The notes: generated by a model not told the origin, from the letters alone. 64,000 nt of DNA from an archaeon (GCA_043799715.1 JAZDNM010000007.1:21265-85264), one strand, 5' to 3'; positions 5,778 through 20,052 are shown, counted from the first letter of the stretch. Made by a program: numbers and translations.

Positions 5778-6728
5778 CTATTTCTTCTTCTCTTTTTCCT
5801 TAACAACCTTTGCCTCTGCTTCCTTTATCTTCAGCTTTTCCTGCAGCTCAAGCTTTTCAAGAAGCTCCTTGTACCTGTTCCTTATTGTGACTTCTGTTAT
5901 GCCTGCAACATCAGCCACTTCCCTCTGTGTTTTTTTCTCGTCATTCAGCAATGCTGCAACATACAGTGCAGCTGCTGCAATGCCAGCAGGCCCTCTTCCA
6001 GAAGTCAGCTCTGAAATCTCTGCTTTTTTCAAAATTCTTAATGTGTCATTCTGAGTTCTTGGGGACAAATGCAAAATTGAGGAAAATCTCGGAATGTAAT
6101 CTTTAGGGTTTGAAGGAGTTACTTTTATTGTCAGCTTGCGTGTTATAAACCGATATGTCCTGCCTATCTCCTTTCTCTCAACTTCAGACGCATTTGCTAT
6201 CTCGTCAAGTGTCCTTGGGATGTTGTAGCTGCGGCATGCGGCATATATGCATGCAGCAATAACTGACTCCATGCTTCTGCCCCTGACTAATCCTCTCTGG
6301 AGAATTACATTGTAAACCCTTGATGCCTCTTCTCTTACAATATTTGGCAGGCTGAGGAAAGATGCAACCCTTCTCAGCTCGAACATAGCCAGCCTCAAGT
6401 TTCTTTCAATGCTTGTTGATACTCTTTCCTGCCATTTTTTCAATCTCAGGAATTTTCTTGTCTGCTTTGCCCCCTGAAGCCTGTAAATATCAGAAATCTC
6501 TCCTATGTTTGTTGTCAGCCCCTTGTCAAACTTCTGCATGCTCAATGGAGCTCCGCCTCTGCCTTTCTTGTCGCCTTCTTCAAAATGACTCCACTCCTGC
6601 CCGAAGTCAACCATTTTGTCCTCTACAACAAGCCCACAGTCATGGCAGATAATCTCCCCTTTTTGCTCATCATATCTCAAGTTTATGCTTCCGCATTCAG
6701 GGCATTTCTTGATGAATTGTGTAGGCAT
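5778..6728 (-). CDS. tfb: Transcription initiation factor IIB (TFB)
   Basis: 316 aa with an N-terminal zinc ribbon (CPECGS...CHDCGLV) and two cyclin-like repeats. Confidence 0.95.
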   Translation of the reverse strand: MPTQFIKKCPECGSINLRYDEQKGEIICHDCGLVVEDKMVDFGQEWSHFEEGDKKGRGGAPLSMQKFDKGLTTNIGEISDIYRLQGAKQTRKFLRLKKWQERVSTSIERNLRLAMFELRRVASFLSLPNIVREEASRVYNVILQRGLVRGRSMESVIAACIYAACRSYNIPRTLDEIANASEVERKEIGRTYRFITRKLTIKVTPSNPKDYIPRFSSILHLSPRTQNDTLRILKKAEISELTSGRGPAGIAAAALYVAALLNDEKKTQREVADVAGITEVTIRNRYKELLEKLELQEKLKIKEAEAKVVKEKEKKK

Positions 6729-6806: not shown

Positions 6807-7178
6807 TTATTCTTTCTTTTCCGATACAAGCACTGCGTTGACAAATGATTCCTGACTCGGGCGATTTGTTATTCTTGCATTGCCTATTTCAGTCTCGATT
6901 ATCGCACCCTTAATCAGCACGTTCTGCCTTGCAAGAAACTTGTTTGCAGGGGTTTCAATAACCTTTTTTATAGCTACAATTTTGCATTTCCCTGTTTTTT
7001 TGTCAAGCACATTAGCTGTGTTTGCAGAAAGCAAAACTGTTTTTATTCTTCCGCCCATGCCTCTCATTCCCTTCTTTTTTCCCTTGCCGAGCTTTACAGT
7101 TCTTGTCTGCCCTGTTCTTTCAAAAAGCTTTTTCTTCCTGAATTTTTTGTATCTCCCGCCAGAAGATTTTCTTGCCAT
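6807..7178 (-). CDS. rps8e: 30S ribosomal protein S8e
   Basis: 123 aa: MARKSSGGRYKKFRKKK...NVLIKGAIIETE. A TTTTTAAAC box starts 29 nt before the ATG. Confidence 0.9.
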   Translation of the reverse strand: MARKSSGGRYKKFRKKKLFERTGQTRTVKLGKGKKKGMRGMGGRIKTVLLSANTANVLDKKTGKCKIVAIKKVIETPANKFLARQNVLIKGAIIETEIGNARITNRPSQESFVNAVLVSEKKE

Positions 7179-7814: not shown

Positions 7815-8072
7815 ATGGTCAACGGCGTCGAAAGACCCCTGGATTTGCTGAACAATTCCAAGGGTAAAGAGATACTTGTGCAGTTGAAGAATGACAGGCA
7901 GTTAGTCGGAACTTTGCTAGCATTTGACATACATATAAACATTGTCCTAGACAATGCAAAGGAAATTGAGAACAATGAGGCAAAGAGAAGCATAGGACTG
8001 GTTTTTGTCAGAGGCGACACGATAATCTTCATATCGCCTGCATCAACTTCTGCGCATGCAAAGAAAGAGTAA
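7815..8072 (+). CDS. Sm-like (LSm/SmAP) RNA-binding protein
   Basis: 85 aa with Sm1/Sm2 motifs (ILVQLKNDRQLVGTLLAFDIHINIVLDNA...VFVRGDTIIFI). A TTTAAAAAC box sits at -29. Confidence 0.9.
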   Translation: MVNGVERPLDLLNNSKGKEILVQLKNDRQLVGTLLAFDIHINIVLDNAKEIENNEAKRSIGLVFVRGDTIIFISPASTSAHAKKE

Positions 8073-8174: not shown

Positions 8175-9281
8175 TTATTTTCCAGATTTAATTCTATTGT
8201 CGTGTTTACATAACATCTGACAATTTTCAGCTGTTGTTTTTCCACCTTCGTGCCAAGGAGTTATATGGTCTGCTTCCATTCCTTCTATTTCAAAATGTTT
8301 CTTGCATTTTGGGCAAATACCCTTCTGTTTTTCATATGCAATTCTTTTTTGTTTATCTGAGAAAGCACGAAGATTGAGATATCGCTCGTTTCTTGTTAAA
8401 ATATATAGATATATTCCTTTTTGGTTCGTAATCTCTTCATCTTGCATTAATCCAGCTATTTCTTTTTCTAGTTTTTTTGAATCTAATTTTTTGTTCTTAA
8501 ATTTATTATACAATTCGCCCCAATTAATACCTCTCATCTCTTTTCTGTAATTTGGAAAAATTTTCCTCACCCAGCTAATTACATTTTGGAAATATTCCCA
8601 TAATTCGTCTGCTTTTTTGTCGTGTTGATGTTTAGACATATATTCCTCTATCTTCTCATTGTTAATCCACGATAAAACCGTTTCTAAAATTTCTTGTCTA
8701 ATCGGAGAGCCATTTACTAGTTGTCCACCATCGCCAGCTAGAAGATATGCTGCACAATTTGTCTTACTAAATTTTAATTTGGCATCTGAAAGCCATGGTC
8801 CTGTGTATACTGCATTAAGAAGCTCTTGTTCAGTTAATTTTACTCCAGAGATATTCACGATTCTAAACCAATCCAATTTTTCTCTTTCTTTTCCTTCACA
8901 AAAATAAATCATTAATTCATATTCTAATATTTGACTTTGTTCGTCTTTTGTTAAGCTATGAAAATATTTCCCATTTATTGAAAAATCTCCAGCAACATAT
9001 TGAGCAATACTAATTGTTCTTTGTTGTCCGTCTAAAACTTCAAAATTCCCACCATCTTTTTTTACCCAATATATAATATTAAGTGGGAACTTTTTCTTGA
9101 CTGTTTCAATAACCTCATTTCTCTGTTTATCCTTGTATACAAATTCTCTTTGATATTTCGGACGAATATCTAGTTTTCCTTCATAAGCAGTTACGCCTTC
9201 TTCAGCACTATCTTTATAGTCCTTTACAACTTCTCTTATGGGAATCTTATGTAACTCTACTTTCATAAGATAATGAACCAA
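8175..9281 (-). CDS. DUF262 (ParB/GmrSD-type N-terminal domain) - HNH endonuclease fusion
   Basis: N-terminal KYQREFVY and LDGQQRT motifs mark the DUF262 domain. The C-terminal HNH is CPKCKKHFEIEGMEADHITPWHEGGKTTAENCQMLCKHDN. The first codon at 9281 is TTG and the first ATG is at 9266. Confidence 0.8.
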   Translation of the reverse strand: MVHYLMKVELHKIPIREVVKDYKDSAEEGVTAYEGKLDIRPKYQREFVYKDKQRNEVIETVKKKFPLNIIYWVKKDGGNFEVLDGQQRTISIAQYVAGDFSINGKYFHSLTKDEQSQILEYELMIYFCEGKEREKLDWFRIVNISGVKLTEQELLNAVYTGPWLSDAKLKFSKTNCAAYLLAGDGGQLVNGSPIRQEILETVLSWINNEKIEEYMSKHQHDKKADELWEYFQNVISWVRKIFPNYRKEMRGINWGELYNKFKNKKLDSKKLEKEIAGLMQDEEITNQKGIYLYILTRNERYLNLRAFSDKQKRIAYEKQKGICPKCKKHFEIEGMEADHITPWHEGGKTTAENCQMLCKHDNRIKSGK

Positions 9282-9291
9282 AAAGAATTAT

Positions 9292-10440
9292 TTAAACTTT
9301 CTTATTCTTAATAATTACACGGGCATAAATGCTTGAATATAGCTTTCCTGTCATTACATCCTTAAAAGAAGGAACCTTATCTATTTTGGGATTGTAATCA
9401 AGATATAATGTACCTTTTGCATTAACAGTAAATTTGCCTGTTGGTTTTCCATTTTTATCTAGAATTTCCATTTTTTTGTTACTCTTAAAATCAATTGAAC
9501 CAACTATACCTAGGGCAATAATTTCAAATTGTTCTGGATTATATTTATCTAAAAAAGTAATTGGTACACCAATTAATCCTTTATAGTCCATCGGAATTTC
9601 GCTCACTTTATCTACATTTATAGCATCATAATTATCATACTTTGGATACTCGTTAGGGCTATATTTTTTATACAAAGTTAGAAACTCCCTATGCTTTTCA
9701 ACATCTAAATTAGTAAACCAACAAGAAGTTGAAACTCTGGCAATTTTATTTCCTTTTTCATCTGTATGGTGAAATTGTTTCCAATCTTTTGGAACTATAA
9801 AAAACATACCCACATTAAAATTTGTATAACCTGTTCTAATTTTATTTTCCTTGAACAATTTAAAAATATCTTTGTAAGTTAAGGCATTTGTATTTCCTAT
9901 AATCAAAAATTTTTTATTATAGTCTATTAATTGAGTTAAATATTCTCTAAATAGGGAGAAAGGAGGATTAGTGCAAACTATGTCTGATTGTTTTAATAGG
10001 TCAATGCACTCTTTACTACGAAAGTCCCCTCCTTGTTTAAGAGGTGTTGCTGTATTTTCGTTATGTTTAAGCAACCATTCAACATCAGATATGCCAATTG
10101 AACCATCATTATTAGAATCTTCTACTTTGTTTATTTCAAGTTTAAATGCTTCTTTAGAATTGGCTTTTAACCCCTTTATATTAAACAAAGGTAATTGACT
10201 CCCAACAATTGGCGACCCAGAATAAGAAGTGGCAATAAGTTTTTTTAATTGGAAATTGTTGAAGTTAGCTGCAAAAAACTTAAAAAAATTACTTTCATAT
10301 GGGTCATCACAGTTACAATAAATTACTTTATCCTTAAATTGTGCCTTATAATGCCTTAACTCTCTCTCAATATCACTAATCTGTGTATAAAATTCATCTT
10401 TCTTTGATTTTTTAGCATTGTCAAAAAGTTTAGTAGCCAT
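9292..10440 (-). CDS. N6-adenine DNA methyltransferase, EcoRI-methylase-like family
   Basis: 382 aa with N-terminal KDEFYTQ and the catalytic motif IV DIVCTNPPFS. It lies 10-25 nt upstream of the nuclease gene on the same strand. Confidence 0.8.
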   Translation of the reverse strand: MATKLFDNAKKSKKDEFYTQISDIERELRHYKAQFKDKVIYCNCDDPYESNFFKFFAANFNNFQLKKLIATSYSGSPIVGSQLPLFNIKGLKANSKEAFKLEINKVEDSNNDGSIGISDVEWLLKHNENTATPLKQGGDFRSKECIDLLKQSDIVCTNPPFSLFREYLTQLIDYNKKFLIIGNTNALTYKDIFKLFKENKIRTGYTNFNVGMFFIVPKDWKQFHHTDEKGNKIARVSTSCWFTNLDVEKHREFLTLYKKYSPNEYPKYDNYDAINVDKVSEIPMDYKGLIGVPITFLDKYNPEQFEIIALGIVGSIDFKSNKKMEILDKNGKPTGKFTVNAKGTLYLDYNPKIDKVPSFKDVMTGKLYSSIYARVIIKNKKV

Positions 10441-10464
10441 GATTAATTATTGGTTTTCCCATTT

Positions 10465-11418
10465 TTATAAGTTTTGTTGTGCTAAATTTATTAATTCAAG
10501 CCATCTATTCGGTGTCTGAAATTTCAGTTCAGGGATAGCCAACTCGCTCGGCGTTTTTCCTTTCAGGGCTTCGTGCGGTTTTACAAAATTGTAAAATATC
10601 TCTATGCTTTTCATAATCGCATAAGCACTTTCAACAGAGCCGTGCATCCCTCTAAATCCAGTTGTTCTCTGTCTTATTGTGTTGTGCATCCTCTCAACCC
10701 AGATGTTAAATCCCTCATTCTTCCTTTGAGTGACTATTTTATGCTCTATCTTGTATTTTCTTGTGCGGTTGTCATAACCAAAAGTTTTCTTGACTGCATT
10801 TTCATAAGCGAGAAATCCGTCTGTCGTAACTATCTTGACTTGTTCGCCTGTCTTGTCTTTGATGTTTGACAGGACTTTCTTTAGGTTGTTTTGGCTTCTG
10901 CTTTTGACATAAGCGGAGTTAATCATGAATCTTGTCTTTACATCAATCCCATCTATAAACCAGTTCTTGTCCGTTCCTTTCCTTTTGTGGCTCTTTCTCC
11001 TGTGATACTCCATTTCATCAACTTCTATGTAGCTTCCTATCTGGACTTTCAAGCCATCTGTGTAATCAGCTATTTTCAAGCTGTATTTTCTAACCCATCT
11101 TAAAATGGTGCTGTGGTCAGAGTTGTGCGGAAAGAACGCCTTAAAGTGCTCCTGAACCCCTCTTGTGCTTAATCCCCTGCAAAACAGGTCTAAGGCACAA
11201 GTTATCTTCTGAGGGCTGTTTCGCATCCTAAAGAATGTGTCTCGTGGTATGAACCTCTTGAAGCATGATTTGCAGAAGTATCTTTGCCTCTTTCCGTGGG
11301 CTTCTGTCTGTTTGAATCCTCGCCTGACTACCTCTTTGCTTTGGCAGTGAGGACAAGCTATCTGTTGTTTTTCCATGATATATTCATGTACCTGAACTAT
11401 ATAAACCTTTCGGTACAT
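10465..11418 (-). CDS. IS6-family DDE transposase with N-terminal zinc finger
   Basis: Zinc finger CPHCQS...FCKSCFKRF. The DDE triad context is IEVDEMEY...WFIDGID, VTTDGFLAYENAV and VERMHNTIRQRT, followed by YNFVKPHEALKGKTPSE. An alternative start is M15 at 11376. Confidence 0.8.
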   Translation of the reverse strand: MYRKVYIVQVHEYIMEKQQIACPHCQSKEVVRRGFKQTEAHGKRQRYFCKSCFKRFIPRDTFFRMRNSPQKITCALDLFCRGLSTRGVQEHFKAFFPHNSDHSTILRWVRKYSLKIADYTDGLKVQIGSYIEVDEMEYHRRKSHKRKGTDKNWFIDGIDVKTRFMINSAYVKSRSQNNLKKVLSNIKDKTGEQVKIVTTDGFLAYENAVKKTFGYDNRTRKYKIEHKIVTQRKNEGFNIWVERMHNTIRQRTTGFRGMHGSVESAYAIMKSIEIFYNFVKPHEALKGKTPSELAIPELKFQTPNRWLELINLAQQNL

Positions 11419-11528
11419 GATTTCAAATAACCCATACTGTCTTATAAAACGCCTATTAATTACATAAAGACATAGTCATTTTGCTACAAACCGAAAGACT
11501 TAAATAGTATGGTTAATAATATAACTAT

Positions 11529-12389: not shown

Positions 12390-12557
12390 TTATTCTTTTA
12401 AATCTTTTTCTAAACATATTTTTTCGTGATTGACCGTTACTTTTAACTCCTTACCTAATAACTTAGATTGTTCAACAATATCTTTAGGCAAGATGACAAT
12501 ATAGCGGTTATAGGTTTTATCACCAACTTTCTTGTCTAAAACTTCCCGTATTTTCAT
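12390..12557 (-). CDS. AbrB/SpoVT/MazE-like small DNA-binding protein (55 aa, below the ORF-track cutoff)
   Basis: My own translation is MKIREVLDKKVGDKTYNRYIVILPKDIVEQSKLLGKELKVTVNHEKICLEKDLKE. The ...IVILPKDIVEQ...G.EL.V pattern fits swapped-hairpin AbrB-type domains. Confidence 0.45.
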   Translation of the reverse strand: MKIREVLDKKVGDKTYNRYIVILPKDIVEQSKLLGKELKVTVNHEKICLEKDLKE

Positions 12558-12617
12558 AATATAATCATGTGCATGAATTATTTAAATCTGTCGGTACATG
12601 AACAAAAACAAATTACA

Positions 12618-12873: not shown

Positions 12874-15800
12874 TCACGCAAATGCGCTTATTGATTGGGA
12901 GATGGCTGAAGCAAGCTGGATTTTTTCAGATTCCTGGGAAATTTTTTCCATATCATCCTTGTTGCAGATGAATGCAGGTTCTGTAAGCACAGCAGGCATG
13001 TTTGTGTTCTTGAGAACATACAGGCTGCCTTCTGCGGCTTCTGTGTCAGGCTTGATGCCCCTGTCTTTCACACCCAAACTGGCTACAATATTCTCCTGGA
13101 CTATCCTGGCAAATTCCTTTCCTTTTGTGGAAGTTCTGTAATAGAATGTTTCGGCTCCATTCGCAGAGCAGTACTTTCCATCAACATCCAATGATGCAGA
13201 ATTCATGTGAATGCTGACAAAGATATCCGCTTCAAAATCATTTGCGATTTTTACTCTTGAAGCAAGAGAAACAGCAGCGTCAGTTTCTCTGGTCATTTTT
13301 ACGCTGTATCCTTTTTCTTCAAGCACGCTCTTTAATTTTTCTGCTATTGCCAGATTCATGTCTTTTTCATTTACTCCGTCGCTGTTTACAGCGCCAGGGT
13401 CTGTTCCGCCGTGCCCCGCATCTATCACAATCTTCTTGCTGGCACTCTGGGCTGCTGCAGCGGCAGCAGCTGCGTTTGCTTGTTGGCTTGATGAAGCAAT
13501 ATAATAATATGCTTTCCCGATTTTCTTTACATATGCCTTTGCGCTGTCCCCATTCTGTTTCAAGAAGGGATTCTTGCAGGAGGAAATATCCTTGCTGCAG
13601 TATGTTGAAACATAAGTAGGGCCTTCCTTGTAAGCTGCAATAGCAAGCCCGATATTGCTGAACCTTCTCATATTGCAGGCGAGATATGCTATGCCGCCCT
13701 GGATGTTCTGCTCTGTATTGTACTTGTTTATCGACAGTATCCCCATTGTTTTTGCGCATGCCCCGCCATTCTTGAAATCATTCACAACTGTGTCCTTGAG
13801 CTGCATCAAGCCGTAAGCGCCTGTGCTTGACTGCTCCTTTACATCCCAGCTGCTTTCAACTTCTATGAATGCCCTTGCAAGATTAAAATTCACATCATAC
13901 TGCTTTGCATATTTGTCAATGAGAATATAAATTGCCTGCCTGCTCTGGAATGTGCTTTCAGATTTTGAATTCAGCATATCAGAGGCGCTGTAATCTTTTC
14001 TTATTATAATGCAAATCTCGCTGTTTGAAACCGCAGCGCCTGTTATCCCGGAATTATCTGCATCAATATCTATGCAGACAACATTATCAGGGGTTTCAGT
14101 GTTCTCAGAACCCTCAACTAAATTTTTTTTTTCCTCAGAAACAATGCATTTTGAGCCAGTCCACTGGCAGTTCTCAACAGAGCATTTGTTGCTCTCGCAT
14201 TCAATCTGGTTGTTAAAATTAGAGCATTCCATGCCATCTTCGCAATTAAGGCACGCTGCCTTGATTAATCCCTTTTGAATGTAGCATCTGCCTAATTCAT
14301 GGCATTCACTGTAACTACAGGTATTGAAAATGCCGTCGCTGCATGAAACGCAGTTTGCCTTGATTGTTCCAGGGCTTATTTTTGTGATTTCAGCCACTTC
14401 TTTCTTTGATGTTTTTTCAAGCTGTATGCTCGCCACATTCTCACGATACTTTGCGACCACTAAAGTCATAAGAAGATAATCCCCACTTTCATCCAAATCA
14501 AACTGCTGCTGAATATTCATTTCCAAAATTATTTCCCTGCCGCCAAGTGAGATTTTTGCACCATCTTTCACTGACAACTCCTTCAGCAAAATAGGATACT
14601 CCTTGCTGTTGAATGAAAGAATCTTTTCTGTATTGAGTTCCAAATCAGTGTACTCTGTGCTTGATTCCTTTATCTCGGTTGCCTCAACAGATTTCTTTTT
14701 TTCTGAAGAAACAAGACTCTTTTCTATTTTTGCCTTGAAAATCAATGTTGTTATTCTGTCAAATATCTCAGCAAGCCCTATTCTTGCCTGCGCTTTGTCC
14801 TGATTAAACAAGGATTTCAGGATTATATTCTCATATTGCCCTGTCACATTTGCTATTGCGCTGTTTATTTCCTGCGCTGTTTTGTCTGCTGTGTAGGACT
14901 TGCCGACAATGAGCTTTTCAAGAATTCCATTGTCTTTTGTCAGTTCATACTGTTTCTGGCTTACCTCTGCAAGCAAAGCCTGGCTTCCAGAGTGATCAAG
15001 CATGCTTGTATTCTGCAATGTTGATGCCAGTTCCTTTGCTTTTGCAAGAGTCTCGGAAAGCAAGCCCTGGTCTGTAAAGCTCTGATTTAGCGAGAGAGTA
15101 TCAAGCCAGCATATTATTTTCTTGTCAGTGCAATAGCCCACCTGTTTCCATCTGTCTGGCTGTGTTGTCAGGCTCGGGTTGTCTGTTGTGCACACTCTGA
15201 TAATGCCTAAGCTTGAAATTGACGGGGATAATGCTGATTCCACAGATGACTGCAGATTTAATGATGAAACTGATACAATCCCTGATGTCCCTGCTATGCA
15301 TTCCTGCTCTGTTTTTACCTGCTGCGCTGCCTGCGCAGCAAGATAAGAGTCCTGCAGTTCATTCATGAAATAGGATGTTGTAACCTGCCCGAAGCCGCAT
15401 TCCTCCTGCGCATTTATCTTTACGCATAATTCTGTATATCCTGAAGGCCCTGTGAAATCAACTGACTTGTCAACCTGCTCGCCTTTTGCAATGTAGCCGA
15501 CTGCATTAGGCACAGCCATCTGCTGCATCTGCGCATAATATTCTGTCTGCGGCGACCCTTTCAGATACACATTGTAGTAAGCCCCTGCATCCTTGCCTGC
15601 ATAAATCCTGTAATAAACTTTGTAATGGGATGTTGAAGGCACAGTCGCCTCTGAAAGAATATTCGAGGAGAATGTTGCGTGGAACTGCACAGGGCTTTCA
15701 GGCTCGAGAAGTGAATCGAACATGTCTGATGTTGTTGGATATCTTGCAGAGACCCATGCCTTGCAGATTTCTGTTCCTGCCGCCTCTGTGCTTCTTGCCT

Positions 15801-18800
15801 GGAATGCATTAAAAGCATTTGCGCCATAATAATTTGTAAAGTAATTCACTGAGTCCTGCGCTTTCTGCCATGAGTCCTGCACAAACAGATACTCCCCTCC
15901 GCCGCGCGCGGTGCTTTTTCCTGACATGGTTTCAAGCAGCGACGGAATTCCAACCTTGGCTAAAGGCGCTGCCTGCTTCCAGAAAAATTCGCATAGATAA
16001 ATGGATTTAATCTGGTCGCAGATCCCCACATTTCTGCCTGTTGCAAGATTTTCCTGAAGGCAGTCCCTGACTGCTTTCTGTATCATCACAAAATTATCCA
16101 ATCCTGCATGAACCCCTGTAAGGCAGATTGGAACAATTATCCCCTCTCTTGCATTCGGCAGGCACAGCGCAATGCTGCCTATGATTCCTGTCTGCACAAC
16201 ATCTGCAACAGGATACTTGCCCCCAAAATCGCATCTTGATGAAGGGCATAAAACAGGGTCGCATAAATTAAACATTGTATGGCAGTCTTTTGGTGACATG
16301 AAATCCTCGCATTCATACTGGGGAACTGTAACTGCAGGCTTTCCTCTTGAAAATGACTGCCCTCCAACAGATATGCCTCCTTTGTTCTTGTACTGCCTTG
16401 CAGCTTCAAGCAGATACTGCCTTGCGAGTTTTATCATGTCTGCTGAATTGGGTATTGATGAATAGGTATTTTCAGACATTCCTGTCTGCATGCTGAATTG
16501 AATGCACGGCTTGTCATCCCCATGCCCTGTTGATTCCCATTCTTCCAAGCCATCGCCATTAACATTGCAAATCCAGTAGCTTACAGGCATTCCTGATTCA
16601 GTGTAGGATTTTGTGCTTGAAGTGCCTAAGCTGGATGGCTCGGTTGCGGCATACCATCCGTCTTTTGCATATTTGCCAAGAGGGAGTATGGCAGGCAGCC
16701 CTGCATAAGAGCCTGTCTCCCAGAATTTTACAGCAGGATTTTTGTAAGGATTTGAATATGTTGATGCTGCTGTTATTTCAGCGTATGAAGTTCCAAGGCT
16801 GCTTAAGATTTTTCTCTTGTTCTCCCCTGCAAGTTCATCTCCTATTTTCAATGCACCACTACTGCTAGAGATTTCATAAATTTTAGAAAAGCTGTAGCCC
16901 TGCCCGATAGAATCAAGCACTGCTATATAACTGATGCCCTGCGCAGTGAAAACCGCTGCTTTCTGCCCCTGCGAGATGCTGACGCCCTGCATTTTGCTGT
17001 AATCAGCTTCCTTGACAATATTTTTGTCAGAGAAGGATATTGCCTTGCTCTGGTCCCCTACAAGGGTGCTTTCAACATCTATCCCTGCTGCCTGGAAGAT
17101 ATTTGTTGCTTCTGTGCTTGCCTTGGTGGTTGTTAAAATCTTGTTCCAGTAATTTGCATCATCATAAAGCTTCTGCTGCGAAGCCTGGCACATTGCATCA
17201 GACAGCTTTTTATCAGTACATGCCTGCTGCATTTCAAGATTGAACAATGAATCCCTTACATCAGTTGATGAAAGATAATTCTTGTCCTCAAGAACCTTAA
17301 TATTCCCCTCGCTGAAGACATCCCCTGCTTTCAGCTCAGTGCCATCCCTTGACTTGAATGTAACATCCTTGTACTCATCAAAATATGTCTGGGATTCCTG
17401 GACATATTTTTCCTGGTTTACATATTCCTCTCCGAATGCTCCAAGAACTCCCTCTTTCTTTTCAACAACACCTGCGGTTTTCTTTATTGTGTCTGCTTTG
17501 GAATTTACATTCTTGTAAATGCCCTGTATTGTGCTGACAGAGCTGTCAATTGCGTCTGCATTCTTGTAATAGCAGTCATGGAATGTGCTGTATTTGCCTT
17601 CTGCAACCCCTGACTGGCATATTGGCTCCCAGTATTTCATTGCCTCTGTTCTCGCAAGGCTGCTGCCGCTGCCTGCACCCAGATTATTGAAGAAATTTTT
17701 CACAACAAAATATGCGCTGCCAGCAAAGCATGTGCCTTTCCATACCTTAATGATACTCCCAAGATTATCAACAATCTTCTCCCATTTTGCAATTGAATCG
17801 TTAAGCTCGCTTATCAATTCCTGGGTTTTTTCAGTGCTGAGCTGTATCGACCTTTTCTCAATCCCAATCTTAAATGTGAAATTTGCCTGTGTCTGGGCTC
17901 TTGCAATCATTGGAGAGATAGTCACTGATGCATCTTTTTTCAGGTTTATCTTGCTGACTCTCAAGTCAACTAAGATTTCTTTTGAGGCATCCTTTACAGA
18001 AAGCTTCACTGAATCTTTTTCCTTTACTTTCACTGTAATCGGGTTGCCAGCCTTGTTTTGATAGGAAAATTCAACATAATCCTCTGCAATGCTCAAAACA
18101 GACAATGTCCCTGAGACTGCCTCGTTCTCGCTGTAAGCTTCTGTATTGCCATTAACCATCAAGTCAGCGGACTTCTCGTCCCTGCTCACTTCCTTTATGT
18201 CCTCAAGAACAGCATAATAGCTTCCGCTTGAGGCAGAGATGAATGCTGAAGACAAGCTTAAATCGTGGATTTTCATCAGCTCAAGCTGCTGGCTTGCCTG
18301 TTCTGCGATTCCTGAGCCAGAATAGTCCTTTGCAATCCTGTTAAGCAAATCCTCCTGTGTCTTGAACTTTTTCAAATTTCCAGCAAGCTCTGCTGCCTTG
18401 TACAGCGCATCAGCGCCGTAATATTCCGGCTTTGCACCTTCCTGCTGGGATTTTTTCTCAGAACCATACTGCTCTGAAACTTTTTTGTAATCAGCCAAAG
18501 ATTCAGAGAAATATTCCTCAAGAAGTTTGCCAAAATCATCAGAGTTGTAATTTTTTTCAACAGAGCCTGTCAGCTTGTCAAATGTGAAATAATAGTCCCA
18601 GACAAAAGTGCCCTGCCCTGTTTCCGACGCTGTAATAATCCTGAATTCCGCGTCCTTTCCGAGATAATCTTTGAGCCCTTTTTCAACGCTTGTGTCGCAG
18701 CCGCTCAGGCATTTGATATCCTCTCCAAATTTTGAAGAGCCTTTAATCAGTGTGCTGAATATGTTGAAAAGCGAGTACTTCTTGCCTTTCAGGAGGCTGT

Positions 18801-20052
18801 TTACTACTATATTGAAGTTGTCGAAATAATCGCTCTTTATTGTGTCTGCCTTGACAATCACAACAAAATCCTGATTGAGATTTTTTAGATAAGAGGAAAT
18901 TGCATTTGATGTGCTGCCGATATATGCAAGATATACATTCTGCCCTGAAACAATCTTGTCTCCTGTCTTGAATTCATTTGATGCAATCTCATTCTTTGCA
19001 GAGTCCCTGATTGTCAATCTTGCTTTTGGAGGGTCAATTGAGAGAGTTGTCGGCTGTGAGTCCTTGCAGTTTACTGTCACCTTTCCTCCGCCGACAATAT
19101 TCTGCTCTATATTTGAAATCCAGCATTCATCATCCAAAAATCTCTGCCCTTTTGAAAGCCATAATTCATCGTCGCCAATCCTCACCTTTGCCTTCATTTC
19201 CGGATAGTTGATGCTGTTCAGATTAACTTTCAGCGCAGCAGAGCAATAGTATCCGGGCAGATAGATTTCATTTGAACTCTGCCCTGCCCTTAATGTAACA
19301 GAAGTCAACTGAGTTACTGCATCAGTGTATATCGCAATCTTAACATATTCTCCTGCAGAATCTTTTCCTATCTCCAATGCCCTCAAATACGCCTTTCCGT
19401 TCCAGAATGAATACATTTTGTAATATTGTTTCCATTCCTCCTCGCTCAGCACAGGCAGCAGGAATCCTGCTTTCCCAACTCCAAACGCTTTTTCTGCATT
19501 ATACTGTATCAGGGCTGTTAAATTTGCCTCAACCCACTCAGTCATATTCTTTTCAATCGGCTGATTTTTTAATATCACAACAAGATACCCCAGATTATTC
19601 AATACAGGGCTGCCGAGCAGCTGGGTTCCCCATGTTGTCAGGGCTGCTCTTGCAGGATGAAATCCTATCCCTGCAATATCTTTTGACAACTGCTGCCCCT
19701 TGAATGAGATTGATGTTATTTCAGGGACTTCTATCAAAGGATTAATTTTTATTCCAGTAAGCTGGCAGAAAACCGGGACATCCTGCTCCTCAAGCAAATC
19801 GCTTCTGACAACTGCAGGCGAACAGCTTCCAGGCAAAATCTGCAGGATGAAATCCTGCCTTGCGAGGCACTGCTCCTGGCTGAATGCAGGCCAGTATGTA
19901 TCAATTGAATTTGAGTAATATGAAAGCGGAGAAGGGGAATAGCTGTATGTTGCTGCATATGCTGCTGCAGAGATTATTGCTGCAAAGAAAATGAAAGCAA
20001 AAGCTAACAGTATTCTGCATTTGCCTATTTTAATCAAATCTGTTTTTCTCAT
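12874..20052 (-). CDS. Giant secreted protein (2392 aa) with C-terminal lytic transglycosylase (SLT/GH23) and N-acetylmuramoyl-L-alanine amidase (Amidase_3) domains
   Basis: N-terminal signal ...LLAFAFIFFAAIISAAAYA. SLT motifs are FIEVESSW, GAYGLMQL and AIAAYKEGP (about nt 13501-13938). An Ala8 linker follows. Amidase_3 motifs are IVIDAGHGGTDPGA, VSIHMNS and GAETFYY (about nt 12877-13437). A 12-Cys module lies at about nt 14140-14358. Confidence 0.9.
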   Translation of the reverse strand: MRKTDLIKIGKCRILLAFAFIFFAAIISAAAYAATYSYSPSPLSYYSNSIDTYWPAFSQEQCLARQDFILQILPGSCSPAVVRSDLLEEQDVPVFCQLTGIKINPLIEVPEITSISFKGQQLSKDIAGIGFHPARAALTTWGTQLLGSPVLNNLGYLVVILKNQPIEKNMTEWVEANLTALIQYNAEKAFGVGKAGFLLPVLSEEEWKQYYKMYSFWNGKAYLRALEIGKDSAGEYVKIAIYTDAVTQLTSVTLRAGQSSNEIYLPGYYCSAALKVNLNSINYPEMKAKVRIGDDELWLSKGQRFLDDECWISNIEQNIVGGGKVTVNCKDSQPTTLSIDPPKARLTIRDSAKNEIASNEFKTGDKIVSGQNVYLAYIGSTSNAISSYLKNLNQDFVVIVKADTIKSDYFDNFNIVVNSLLKGKKYSLFNIFSTLIKGSSKFGEDIKCLSGCDTSVEKGLKDYLGKDAEFRIITASETGQGTFVWDYYFTFDKLTGSVEKNYNSDDFGKLLEEYFSESLADYKKVSEQYGSEKKSQQEGAKPEYYGADALYKAAELAGNLKKFKTQEDLLNRIAKDYSGSGIAEQASQQLELMKIHDLSLSSAFISASSGSYYAVLEDIKEVSRDEKSADLMVNGNTEAYSENEAVSGTLSVLSIAEDYVEFSYQNKAGNPITVKVKEKDSVKLSVKDASKEILVDLRVSKINLKKDASVTISPMIARAQTQANFTFKIGIEKRSIQLSTEKTQELISELNDSIAKWEKIVDNLGSIIKVWKGTCFAGSAYFVVKNFFNNLGAGSGSSLARTEAMKYWEPICQSGVAEGKYSTFHDCYYKNADAIDSSVSTIQGIYKNVNSKADTIKKTAGVVEKKEGVLGAFGEEYVNQEKYVQESQTYFDEYKDVTFKSRDGTELKAGDVFSEGNIKVLEDKNYLSSTDVRDSLFNLEMQQACTDKKLSDAMCQASQQKLYDDANYWNKILTTTKASTEATNIFQAAGIDVESTLVGDQSKAISFSDKNIVKEADYSKMQGVSISQGQKAAVFTAQGISYIAVLDSIGQGYSFSKIYEISSSSGALKIGDELAGENKRKILSSLGTSYAEITAASTYSNPYKNPAVKFWETGSYAGLPAILPLGKYAKDGWYAATEPSSLGTSSTKSYTESGMPVSYWICNVNGDGLEEWESTGHGDDKPCIQFSMQTGMSENTYSSIPNSADMIKLARQYLLEAARQYKNKGGISVGGQSFSRGKPAVTVPQYECEDFMSPKDCHTMFNLCDPVLCPSSRCDFGGKYPVADVVQTGIIGSIALCLPNAREGIIVPICLTGVHAGLDNFVMIQKAVRDCLQENLATGRNVGICDQIKSIYLCEFFWKQAAPLAKVGIPSLLETMSGKSTARGGGEYLFVQDSWQKAQDSVNYFTNYYGANAFNAFQARSTEAAGTEICKAWVSARYPTTSDMFDSLLEPESPVQFHATFSSNILSEATVPSTSHYKVYYRIYAGKDAGAYYNVYLKGSPQTEYYAQMQQMAVPNAVGYIAKGEQVDKSVDFTGPSGYTELCVKINAQEECGFGQVTTSYFMNELQDSYLAAQAAQQVKTEQECIAGTSGIVSVSSLNLQSSVESALSPSISSLGIIRVCTTDNPSLTTQPDRWKQVGYCTDKKIICWLDTLSLNQSFTDQGLLSETLAKAKELASTLQNTSMLDHSGSQALLAEVSQKQYELTKDNGILEKLIVGKSYTADKTAQEINSAIANVTGQYENIILKSLFNQDKAQARIGLAEIFDRITTLIFKAKIEKSLVSSEKKKSVEATEIKESSTEYTDLELNTEKILSFNSKEYPILLKELSVKDGAKISLGGREIILEMNIQQQFDLDESGDYLLMTLVVAKYRENVASIQLEKTSKKEVAEITKISPGTIKANCVSCSDGIFNTCSYSECHELGRCYIQKGLIKAACLNCEDGMECSNFNNQIECESNKCSVENCQWTGSKCIVSEEKKNLVEGSENTETPDNVVCIDIDADNSGITGAAVSNSEICIIIRKDYSASDMLNSKSESTFQSRQAIYILIDKYAKQYDVNFNLARAFIEVESSWDVKEQSSTGAYGLMQLKDTVVNDFKNGGACAKTMGILSINKYNTEQNIQGGIAYLACNMRRFSNIGLAIAAYKEGPTYVSTYCSKDISSCKNPFLKQNGDSAKAYVKKIGKAYYYIASSSQQANAAAAAAAAQSASKKIVIDAGHGGTDPGAVNSDGVNEKDMNLAIAEKLKSVLEEKGYSVKMTRETDAAVSLASRVKIANDFEADIFVSIHMNSASLDVDGKYCSANGAETFYYRTSTKGKEFARIVQENIVASLGVKDRGIKPDTEAAEGSLYVLKNTNMPAVLTEPAFICNKDDMEKISQESEKIQLASAISQSISAFA

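Follow-up and report, generated by a model that had tools for sequence, protein, structure and literature searches.

We present here an analysis of a two-gene module at positions 8175-10440 of a 64,000-nt stretch of archaeal DNA (GCA_043799715.1 JAZDNM010000007.1:21265-85264; hereafter the window), in which an EcoRI-family adenine methyltransferase is followed on the same strand by a nuclease that combines an N-terminal DUF262 domain with a C-terminal HNH domain. The pair is in all likelihood a classical, methylation-protected Type II-like restriction-modification (R-M) operon, and it is an ordinary member of an already catalogued family of Type II-like R-M systems, not a new kind of system. 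A preliminary description of this DNA had left two options, either a Type II-like R-M system whose endonuclease uses a DUF262 domain or a modification-dependent system in which the methylase has another role. The first is supported by a near-obligate methylase-nuclease gene order in Archaea, Bacteria, plasmids and phages, by co-variation of the two proteins and by loss of the nuclease but not of the methylase, and this asymmetry of loss disfavors the second. The components of the pair are as follows.

9292-10440, minus strand: EcoRI-family N6-adenine DNA methyltransferase, 382 aa (Pfam PF13651, PADLOC PDLC03297)
9267-9291, minus strand: 25-nt spacer from the methylase stop codon to the nuclease start codon, as in a tight operon (read from the sequence)
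8175-9266, minus strand: DUF262-HNH restriction nuclease, 363 aa (PADLOC PDLC03418, Pfam GmrSD_N and HNH)
8805-9167, minus strand: DUF262/GmrSD_N domain of the nuclease, ParB-sulfiredoxin fold (Pfam PF03235)
8184-8315, minus strand: C-terminal HNH domain of the nuclease (Pfam PF01844)

Both open reading frames (ORFs), their strand and all of the motifs read in the preliminary description (DEFYTQ and NPPFS in the methylase; KYQREF, DGQQRT and DHITPWHEGG...N...LC..DN in the nuclease) are indeed present, and the profile comparison that it had proposed gave matches to all three Pfam families (PF13651, PF03235 and PF01844), at significance levels that leave no room for coincidence. The methylase belongs to the EcoRI_methylase family PF13651, which it matches at E=7e-133 over profile positions 2-345 of 345 and with a score of 443.6 bits, compared with a gathering cut-off of 26.4; essentially its entire length also matches the PADLOC profile MTase_II (PDLC03297), at 1e-114. 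DEFYTQ is located at residues 15-20 and NPPFS at residues 158-162. The segments DEFYT, NCDDP, GDFRS and TNPPFSLFRE are kept in at least 95% of 77 methylase relatives, as are the catalytic residues N158-P159-P160-F161, and the variable segments of the protein are residues ~81-140, 201-240 and 301-360. A search of the 50%-identity library gave 490 representative clusters (E<=1e-30), and there may therefore be several specificities.

The nuclease ORF extends over 8175-9281 (368 aa) when read from a TTG codon, and an ATG at 9266 gives a protein of 363 aa. Since the homologues are 363 aa long and begin with MK(I/V)ELH at the equivalent methionine, the ATG at 9266 appears to be the true start. The distance from the methylase stop codon is 25 nt to this ATG and 10 nt to the TTG, in agreement with the 10-25 nt originally reported. 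In the numbering of the 368-aa ORF, residues 6-368 match the entire PADLOC profile REase_II (PDLC03418; 2e-132, positions 1-372 of 372), residues 39-159 match GmrSD_N/DUF262 (PF03235; E=5e-18) and residues 323-366 match HNH (PF01844; E=5e-12). PDLC03418 also recognizes all nine relatives tested, with 283-478 bits. The Pfam scan of the nuclease returned PF01844 and HNH_5 as the only nuclease domains, with no DUF1524.

Residue conservation was assessed in an alignment of 70 nuclease sequences from two clades that are ~40% identical to each other and each contain thousands of database clusters; positions are given in the 363-aa numbering. The DUF262 motifs P36-x-Y38-Q39-R40 and D79-G80-Q81-Q82-R83 are invariant, and it is these two motifs, P-x-Y-Q-R and DGQQR, that build the nucleotide pocket of GmrSD-type DUF262 domains (PMC11322646). 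In the C-terminal domain, C318-x2-C321, D333-H334, N348-C349-x3-C353 and N357 are invariant or nearly so in both clades. The nuclease thus possesses the His and Asn residues and the zinc-binding cysteines of HNH/His-Me finger enzymes, and C318, C321, D333-H334, N348, C349, C353 and N357 are predicted to form a zinc-bound HNH site. As far as can be judged from their sequences, both proteins are intact and functional-looking, being full length and retaining their catalytic and nucleotide-pocket residues.

An AlphaFold2 (AF2) model of the nuclease reached a mean predicted local distance difference test (pLDDT) value of 84.6 when the alignment included both clades, and 44.6 with 40 close homologues only. 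The region of residues ~125-300 is helical in the model. Foldseek searches with the model retrieved no full-length structural relative (best E=0.016), and at the domain level gave the Gme HNH nickase 4H9D, BrxU 7P9K, ParB/Noc CTPase domains, sulfiredoxin, SspE and McrA. Likewise, when the PDB was searched by sequence and by profile, neither protein had a close relative there and the matches were at the level of domains, namely of the HNH domain to Gme HNH 4H9D (E=1e-5) and, weakly, of the N-terminal part to BrxU 7P9K (E=0.09).

From these features a working scheme can be proposed. The upstream gene would encode a gamma-class N6-adenine methylase, a close relative of M.EcoRI, that marks the host genome at a short DNA sequence, and the downstream gene a single-chain nuclease that would cut DNA without the mark. 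Cleavage would be carried out by the zinc-stabilized HNH active site (D333-H334, N348 and N357), and DNA binding, probably along with control by nucleotides, would fall to the helical middle (~125-300) and the N-terminal DUF262 domain. The DNA is presumably read by the helical region, by the DUF262 domain or by the two together. The DUF262 domain is presumed to bind a nucleoside triphosphate (NTP), and nucleotide binding by this domain would in turn regulate the HNH domain.

The pairing of methylase and nuclease is no chance adjacency. A scan of one genome per species identified at least 465 relatives of the nuclease, of which the best 80 (64-84% identical) were analysed, along with 80 viral or proviral contigs also selected by the nuclease. 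The co-occurrence survey suggested in the preliminary description has thereby been made, and the gene pair recurs far outside the window: 153 of the 160 loci carry a methylase of the EcoRI family upstream of the nuclease and in the same orientation. Among the genome loci the count is 76 of 80, and the other four consist of three in which the nuclease is at a contig edge and one (L016) in which a RhuM-like cargo gene occupies the space between the nuclease and the contig end. For the viral and proviral contigs it is 77 of 80, the remainder being two contig-edge cases and a chimeric remnant (L150), which is the sole clear instance of a nuclease whose partner methylase is not intact. Inspected by eye, the ORF upstream of the nuclease in this contig (L150:5049-6017) is a chimera: its N-terminus resembles a PAPS reductase, it contains a TDRQ repeat, and it has the C-terminal end typical of an EcoRI-like methylase.

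The hosts of the best 80 nuclease relatives include Woese-, Pace-, Nano- and Iainarchaeota, Methanosarcinales and Methanobacterium as well as many Patescibacteria, Omnitrophota, Gammaproteobacteria, Bacteroidota and others. The same methylase-nuclease order was also found on plasmids of Mammaliicoccus, Gordonia, Pediococcus, Enterococcus faecium and Arthrobacter and in the Flavobacterium phage laban6-1, and the two genes of these plasmid and phage pairs often overlap by 4 bp. In DPANN archaea and Patescibacteria few R-M cassettes are spread as widely as this family, which is also found in staphylococci, enterococci, actinobacterial plasmids and phages. Among complete E. coli genomes, the DUF262-HNH pair is present in 1 of 5426.

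The spacing between the two genes is -4 to +25 nt in most related loci. In 15 of the 80 genome loci (L011, L053, L029, L081, L023, L051, L035, L050, L069, L074, L018, L026, L056, L034 and L049), 400-4400 nt are inserted between methylase and nuclease, carrying GIY-YIG/T5orf172-like, Fic-like, RhuM-like and SMC-like genes and small proteins of no known kind (assigned by eye, without a family search). A conserved third component of the system was considered for these inserts and rejected, as the inserts carry unrelated cargo genes; the junction looks like an insertion hot spot. Two predicted proteins unite parts of both genes, one of 688 aa (P0402) with EcoRI_methylase, GmrSD_N and HNH domains and one of 515 aa (P0521) with EcoRI_methylase and GmrSD_N. 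These could be either true fusions or frameshift or stop-loss artefacts at overlapping methylase/nuclease junctions. The pairwise identities of methylases and nucleases co-vary (r=0.50-0.68).

In the reverse survey, 46 viral loci were selected by the methylase and by having room downstream of it. A full nuclease was present in 25, a nuclease stump only in 7 and none in 14. Six of the seven stumps correspond to the first 42-85 residues of the nuclease beside an intact methylase, and the seventh (L210) to the last 53 residues beside a likewise truncated methylase. Loci that retain the nuclease hardly ever lack the methylase, while loci that retain the methylase often lack the nuclease. Such asymmetric loss is the toxin-antidote signature of classical restriction-modification, the methylase being the protective antidote, and because of it we consider it highly probable that methylation blocks cleavage by the nuclease.

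The converse would be a GmrSD-like Type IV nuclease that depends on modification and attacks modified DNA of foreign origin, next to a methylase that is there for another purpose, such as self-marking against a different system or epigenetic regulation. The likeness is real in so far as a DUF262 domain with DGQQR is a hallmark of the modification-dependent or modification-sensing enzymes GmrSD, BrxU and SspE, the last two of which are among the partial Foldseek matches, and these enzymes share with the window nuclease the succession of an N-terminal, ParB-like DUF262 domain that bears the QR and DGQQR motifs, then a helical linker, and lastly a His-Me-finger nuclease at the C-terminus. Their nuclease domain, however, is a DUF1524, whereas that of the window protein is a canonical, zinc-bound HNH (PF01844), and at 363 aa the latter is shorter than BrxU (580 residues in chain 7p9k_A). 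Furthermore, Type IV enzymes have no cognate protective methylase, and the window nuclease is coupled to one near-obligately, as seen from the genomic context, with a pattern of loss that indicates a methylation-blocked enzyme and is the opposite of that expected for an independent Type IV enzyme. A nuclease dependent on N6-methyladenine and co-transcribed with an N6-adenine methylase would moreover be suicidal. A Type IV role for the nuclease is therefore very unlikely.

Several points nevertheless weigh against a methylation-protected R-M operon. Conservation is higher in the nuclease than in the methylase, with a mean pairwise identity of 73% compared with 59% and a higher nuclease value in 98.6% of pairs, an uncommon pattern for Type II pairs; along the length of the nuclease it is uniform. 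The PADLOC R-M models derive from REBASE, and their seeds need not be biochemically characterized enzymes. Our literature searches found experimental data for no member of the DUF262-HNH family, and the characterized DUF262 nucleases, GmrSD, BrxU and SspE, all depend on or sense modification (PMC12707154). In addition, an imprint of the system on k-mer usage was not apparent in 66 related loci (1.18 Mb, pooled) plus the window: no 4-, 5- or 6-mer was consistently depleted across the 66 loci and no depleted palindrome was common to them, and neither GAATTC (observed/expected ratio, O/E, 0.82) nor AATT (O/E 0.97) was avoided in the 1.18 Mb.

Our guess at the recognition site is GAATTC or a relative with an AATT core, because the methylase is 50% identical to M.EcoRI. 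GATC was considered as the site of the pair in view of its scarcity in the window (positions 1-64000), where it occurs 25 times compared with ~210 expected (O/E 0.12), and was rejected since it falls below half of expectation in only 11 of the 66 related loci. Together with the depletion of GGCC (36 observed compared with 138 expected, O/E 0.26), it probably reflects another restriction pressure on the archaeon. The small plasmids carrying the pair likewise gave no palindrome-avoidance signal that would point to a recognition site. One of the pair-bearing plasmids, the 8376-bp rumen plasmid pRGI00069 (L002), is completely devoid of TGCA, GCGC and GTAC, for which ~30 occurrences each would be expected.

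The surroundings of the pair bear on how it came to be in this genome. The neighbouring features are:

10462-10470, minus strand: candidate archaeal TATA box, TTATAAAAA (read from the sequence)
10465-11418, minus strand: insertion sequence (IS) transposase with zinc ribbon and DDE domains, IS6/IS1-like (Pfam and NCBIfam matches)
5778-6728: TFIIB gene
6807-7178: ribosomal protein S8e gene
7815-8072: LSM protein gene

Since TFIIB, S8e and LSM genes lie beside the pair, the window is archaeal chromosome, neither plasmid nor virus, and the pair does not reside on a mobile element in the sense first proposed; what stands of that proposal is a low-GC islet beside an IS transposase. The GC content is 28-32% over the pair (8-10 kb of the window) and ~40% elsewhere. 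Given the housekeeping neighbours, the adjoining transposase and the drop in GC, the pair is probably a small, horizontally acquired islet. The transposase gene has the same orientation as the methylase gene and stops 24 nt ahead of the methylase start; the Pfam and NCBIfam matches of the transposase are all under the curated cut-offs for named IS families. Homologous transposases adjoin the same R-M pair in three further archaeal loci (L068, L072 and L077), and the element is a possible vehicle for the islet. The motif TTATAAAAA, ~26 nt 5′ of the methylase ATG and overlapping the transposase stop codon, could possibly serve as the archaeal TATA box of the methylase gene.

The low GC content and the IS neighbour might also be taken as signs of a recently acquired, non-functional passenger, or of an incidental adjacency of the two genes. 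With both ORFs intact and full length, every conserved motif present and the linkage kept in more than 150 loci, such an explanation is extremely improbable. A different possibility is that the pair is mainly a selfish addiction or homing module, whose HNH nuclease kills cells that lose the cassette or cleaves alleles lacking it and thereby promotes its spread; the biochemistry would be the same and the role another. The occurrence of relatives 64-84% identical across Archaea and many bacterial phyla, the presence of the pair in phages and on small plasmids next to toxin-antitoxin genes, and the IS elements adjoining it here and in other archaeal loci would all fit. No target-site or homing evidence was found for it, and classical R-M systems also act selfishly, so that the two roles are not mutually exclusive. 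As the main function of the pair, selfishness seems unlikely to us, and a classical R-M operon remains the preferred explanation.

Some further features of the window are recorded here. A 53-nt direct repeat (81% identical; 11367-11419 and 12548-12600) spans, in one copy, the 5′ end of the transposase gene and, in the other, that of a MazE/AbrB-like ORF of 55 aa (12390-12557), and may represent a shared promoter or an IS end. A 2392-aa ORF on the minus strand (12874-20052) carries SLT lytic transglycosylase and Amidase_3 (N-acetylmuramoyl-L-alanine amidase) domains at its end, that is, murein-degrading domains in an archaeon. At 2296-2388 on the plus strand, ARAGORN called a tRNA of 93 nt whose anticodon, 'catg', has the odd length of four bases; this is probably a mis-parsed, intron-containing archaeal tRNA.

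How far the system had been recognized before can be answered in two parts. PADLOC-DB v2 contains a model of 372 positions, PDLC03418, which is named 'Type II restriction enzyme' and is specific to the DUF262-HNH family. The window pair has what PADLOC looks for in a Type II system, namely MTase_II and REase_II genes that are adjacent, 25 nt apart and on the same strand; standard tools would call the locus 'RM type II', and no new category is needed. DUF262 domains fused to HNH and tied to DNA-modification systems were mentioned in the comparative genomics of Makarova et al. in 2013 (PMC3632139). The novelty implied by the earlier statement that no characterized example of this architecture was known is weakened by this model and this mention. 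That statement holds in so far as no biochemical paper and no solved structure were found for the DUF262-HNH architecture, nor any open paper on such a nuclease with an EcoRI-like methylase. The NCBI and UniRef names of nuclease relatives are 'DUF262 domain-containing', 'HNH endonuclease family' and 'GmrSD restriction endonuclease domain-containing', and the source names from clusters of 15 billion proteins are all generic.

Among systems with similar domains, the Menshen protein NsnA (8e-26) and PD-T4-2_A (3e-10) match the DUF262 region of the nuclease in PADLOC. Both matches are partial, being confined to residues ~34-164, and the best full-length match is to REase_II; Menshen and PD-T4-2 lack an HNH domain and a partner methylase, and the neighbours of the window nuclease are a methylase and an IS element instead of NsnB/C. 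The pair is thus a member of neither system. KpnI, Hpy99I, PacI and NlaIII are HNH-type Type II restriction enzymes, which, like the nuclease of the window pair, have an HNH/beta-beta-alpha-metal domain, cysteine zinc ligands and a cognate methylase. To our knowledge none of the four has an N-terminal DUF262 domain, and the PDB searches and Foldseek gave no sequence or fold match of the window nuclease to any of them.

The closest comparison on the methylase side is with EcoRI itself. The window methylase is 50% identical over 314 aa (E=5e-95) to the genuine M.EcoRI of the E. coli plasmid pU90-3 (L213:2123-3966), which matches the same PADLOC model, PDLC03297, at 571 bits. Each of the two systems is a cassette of two genes, Type II in style and carried by mobile DNA. 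In contrast, the order of the genes is nuclease-methylase in the EcoRI cassette of pU90-3 and methylase-nuclease in the window, and the nucleases are unrelated, R.EcoRI matching PDLC03551 and the DUF262-HNH nuclease PDLC03418; an EcoRI-family PD-(D/E)XK partner, as in the EcoRI system proper, is lacking from the window pair. M.EcoRI is 46-57% (mean 52%) identical to the 77 methylases partnered with DUF262-HNH nucleases, which are 58% identical among themselves. In a rough neighbour-joining distance tree, which is no rigorous phylogeny, the methylases with EcoRI-type partners (from E. coli, Klebsiella and Leuconostoc; L213, L214 and L215) formed one group in 100 of 100 bootstraps, and this group nested among the DUF262-HNH-partnered methylases in 85 of 100. 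Because of this nesting, one methylase lineage appears to serve two unrelated nucleases with opposite gene order. A further EcoRI-family methylase domain was seen on the Lactiplantibacillus plantarum plasmid p9 (L217), where it forms the N-terminal part of an ORF of 700 aa with the annotation dcm cytosine-5 methyltransferase; this ORF may encode two methylases in one protein and have a different partner gene again downstream.

The DUF262-HNH nuclease is by far the more widespread partner of the EcoRI methylase lineage. It is conceivable, and we offer it as a tentative proposal that is more doubtful than not, that DUF262-HNH proteins make up a distinct class of restriction enzymes bridging Types II and IV, in which a ParB-like, NTP-binding domain, of a type that senses modified DNA in other systems, would gate or load the HNH domain on unmethylated sites, so that cleavage would be NTP-dependent and methylation-blocked; it may even be that the M.EcoRI lineage had such proteins as its ancestral partners, or has them as its usual ones, and that GAATTC-like sites are possibly cut here by an enzyme whose fold is unrelated to that of R.EcoRI. 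At stake are the existence of a non-homologous EcoRI isoschizomer and the NTP control of a methylation-blocked nuclease. The remaining interest of the pair lies in the role of the ParB-like domain and in the methylase lineage that it has in common with EcoRI: M.EcoRI, the best-known methylase, has its nearest relatives among the methylases of this family, and thus comes from a lineage that is commonly paired with a nuclease which is itself unstudied and which bears a ParB-like, nucleotide-binding domain.

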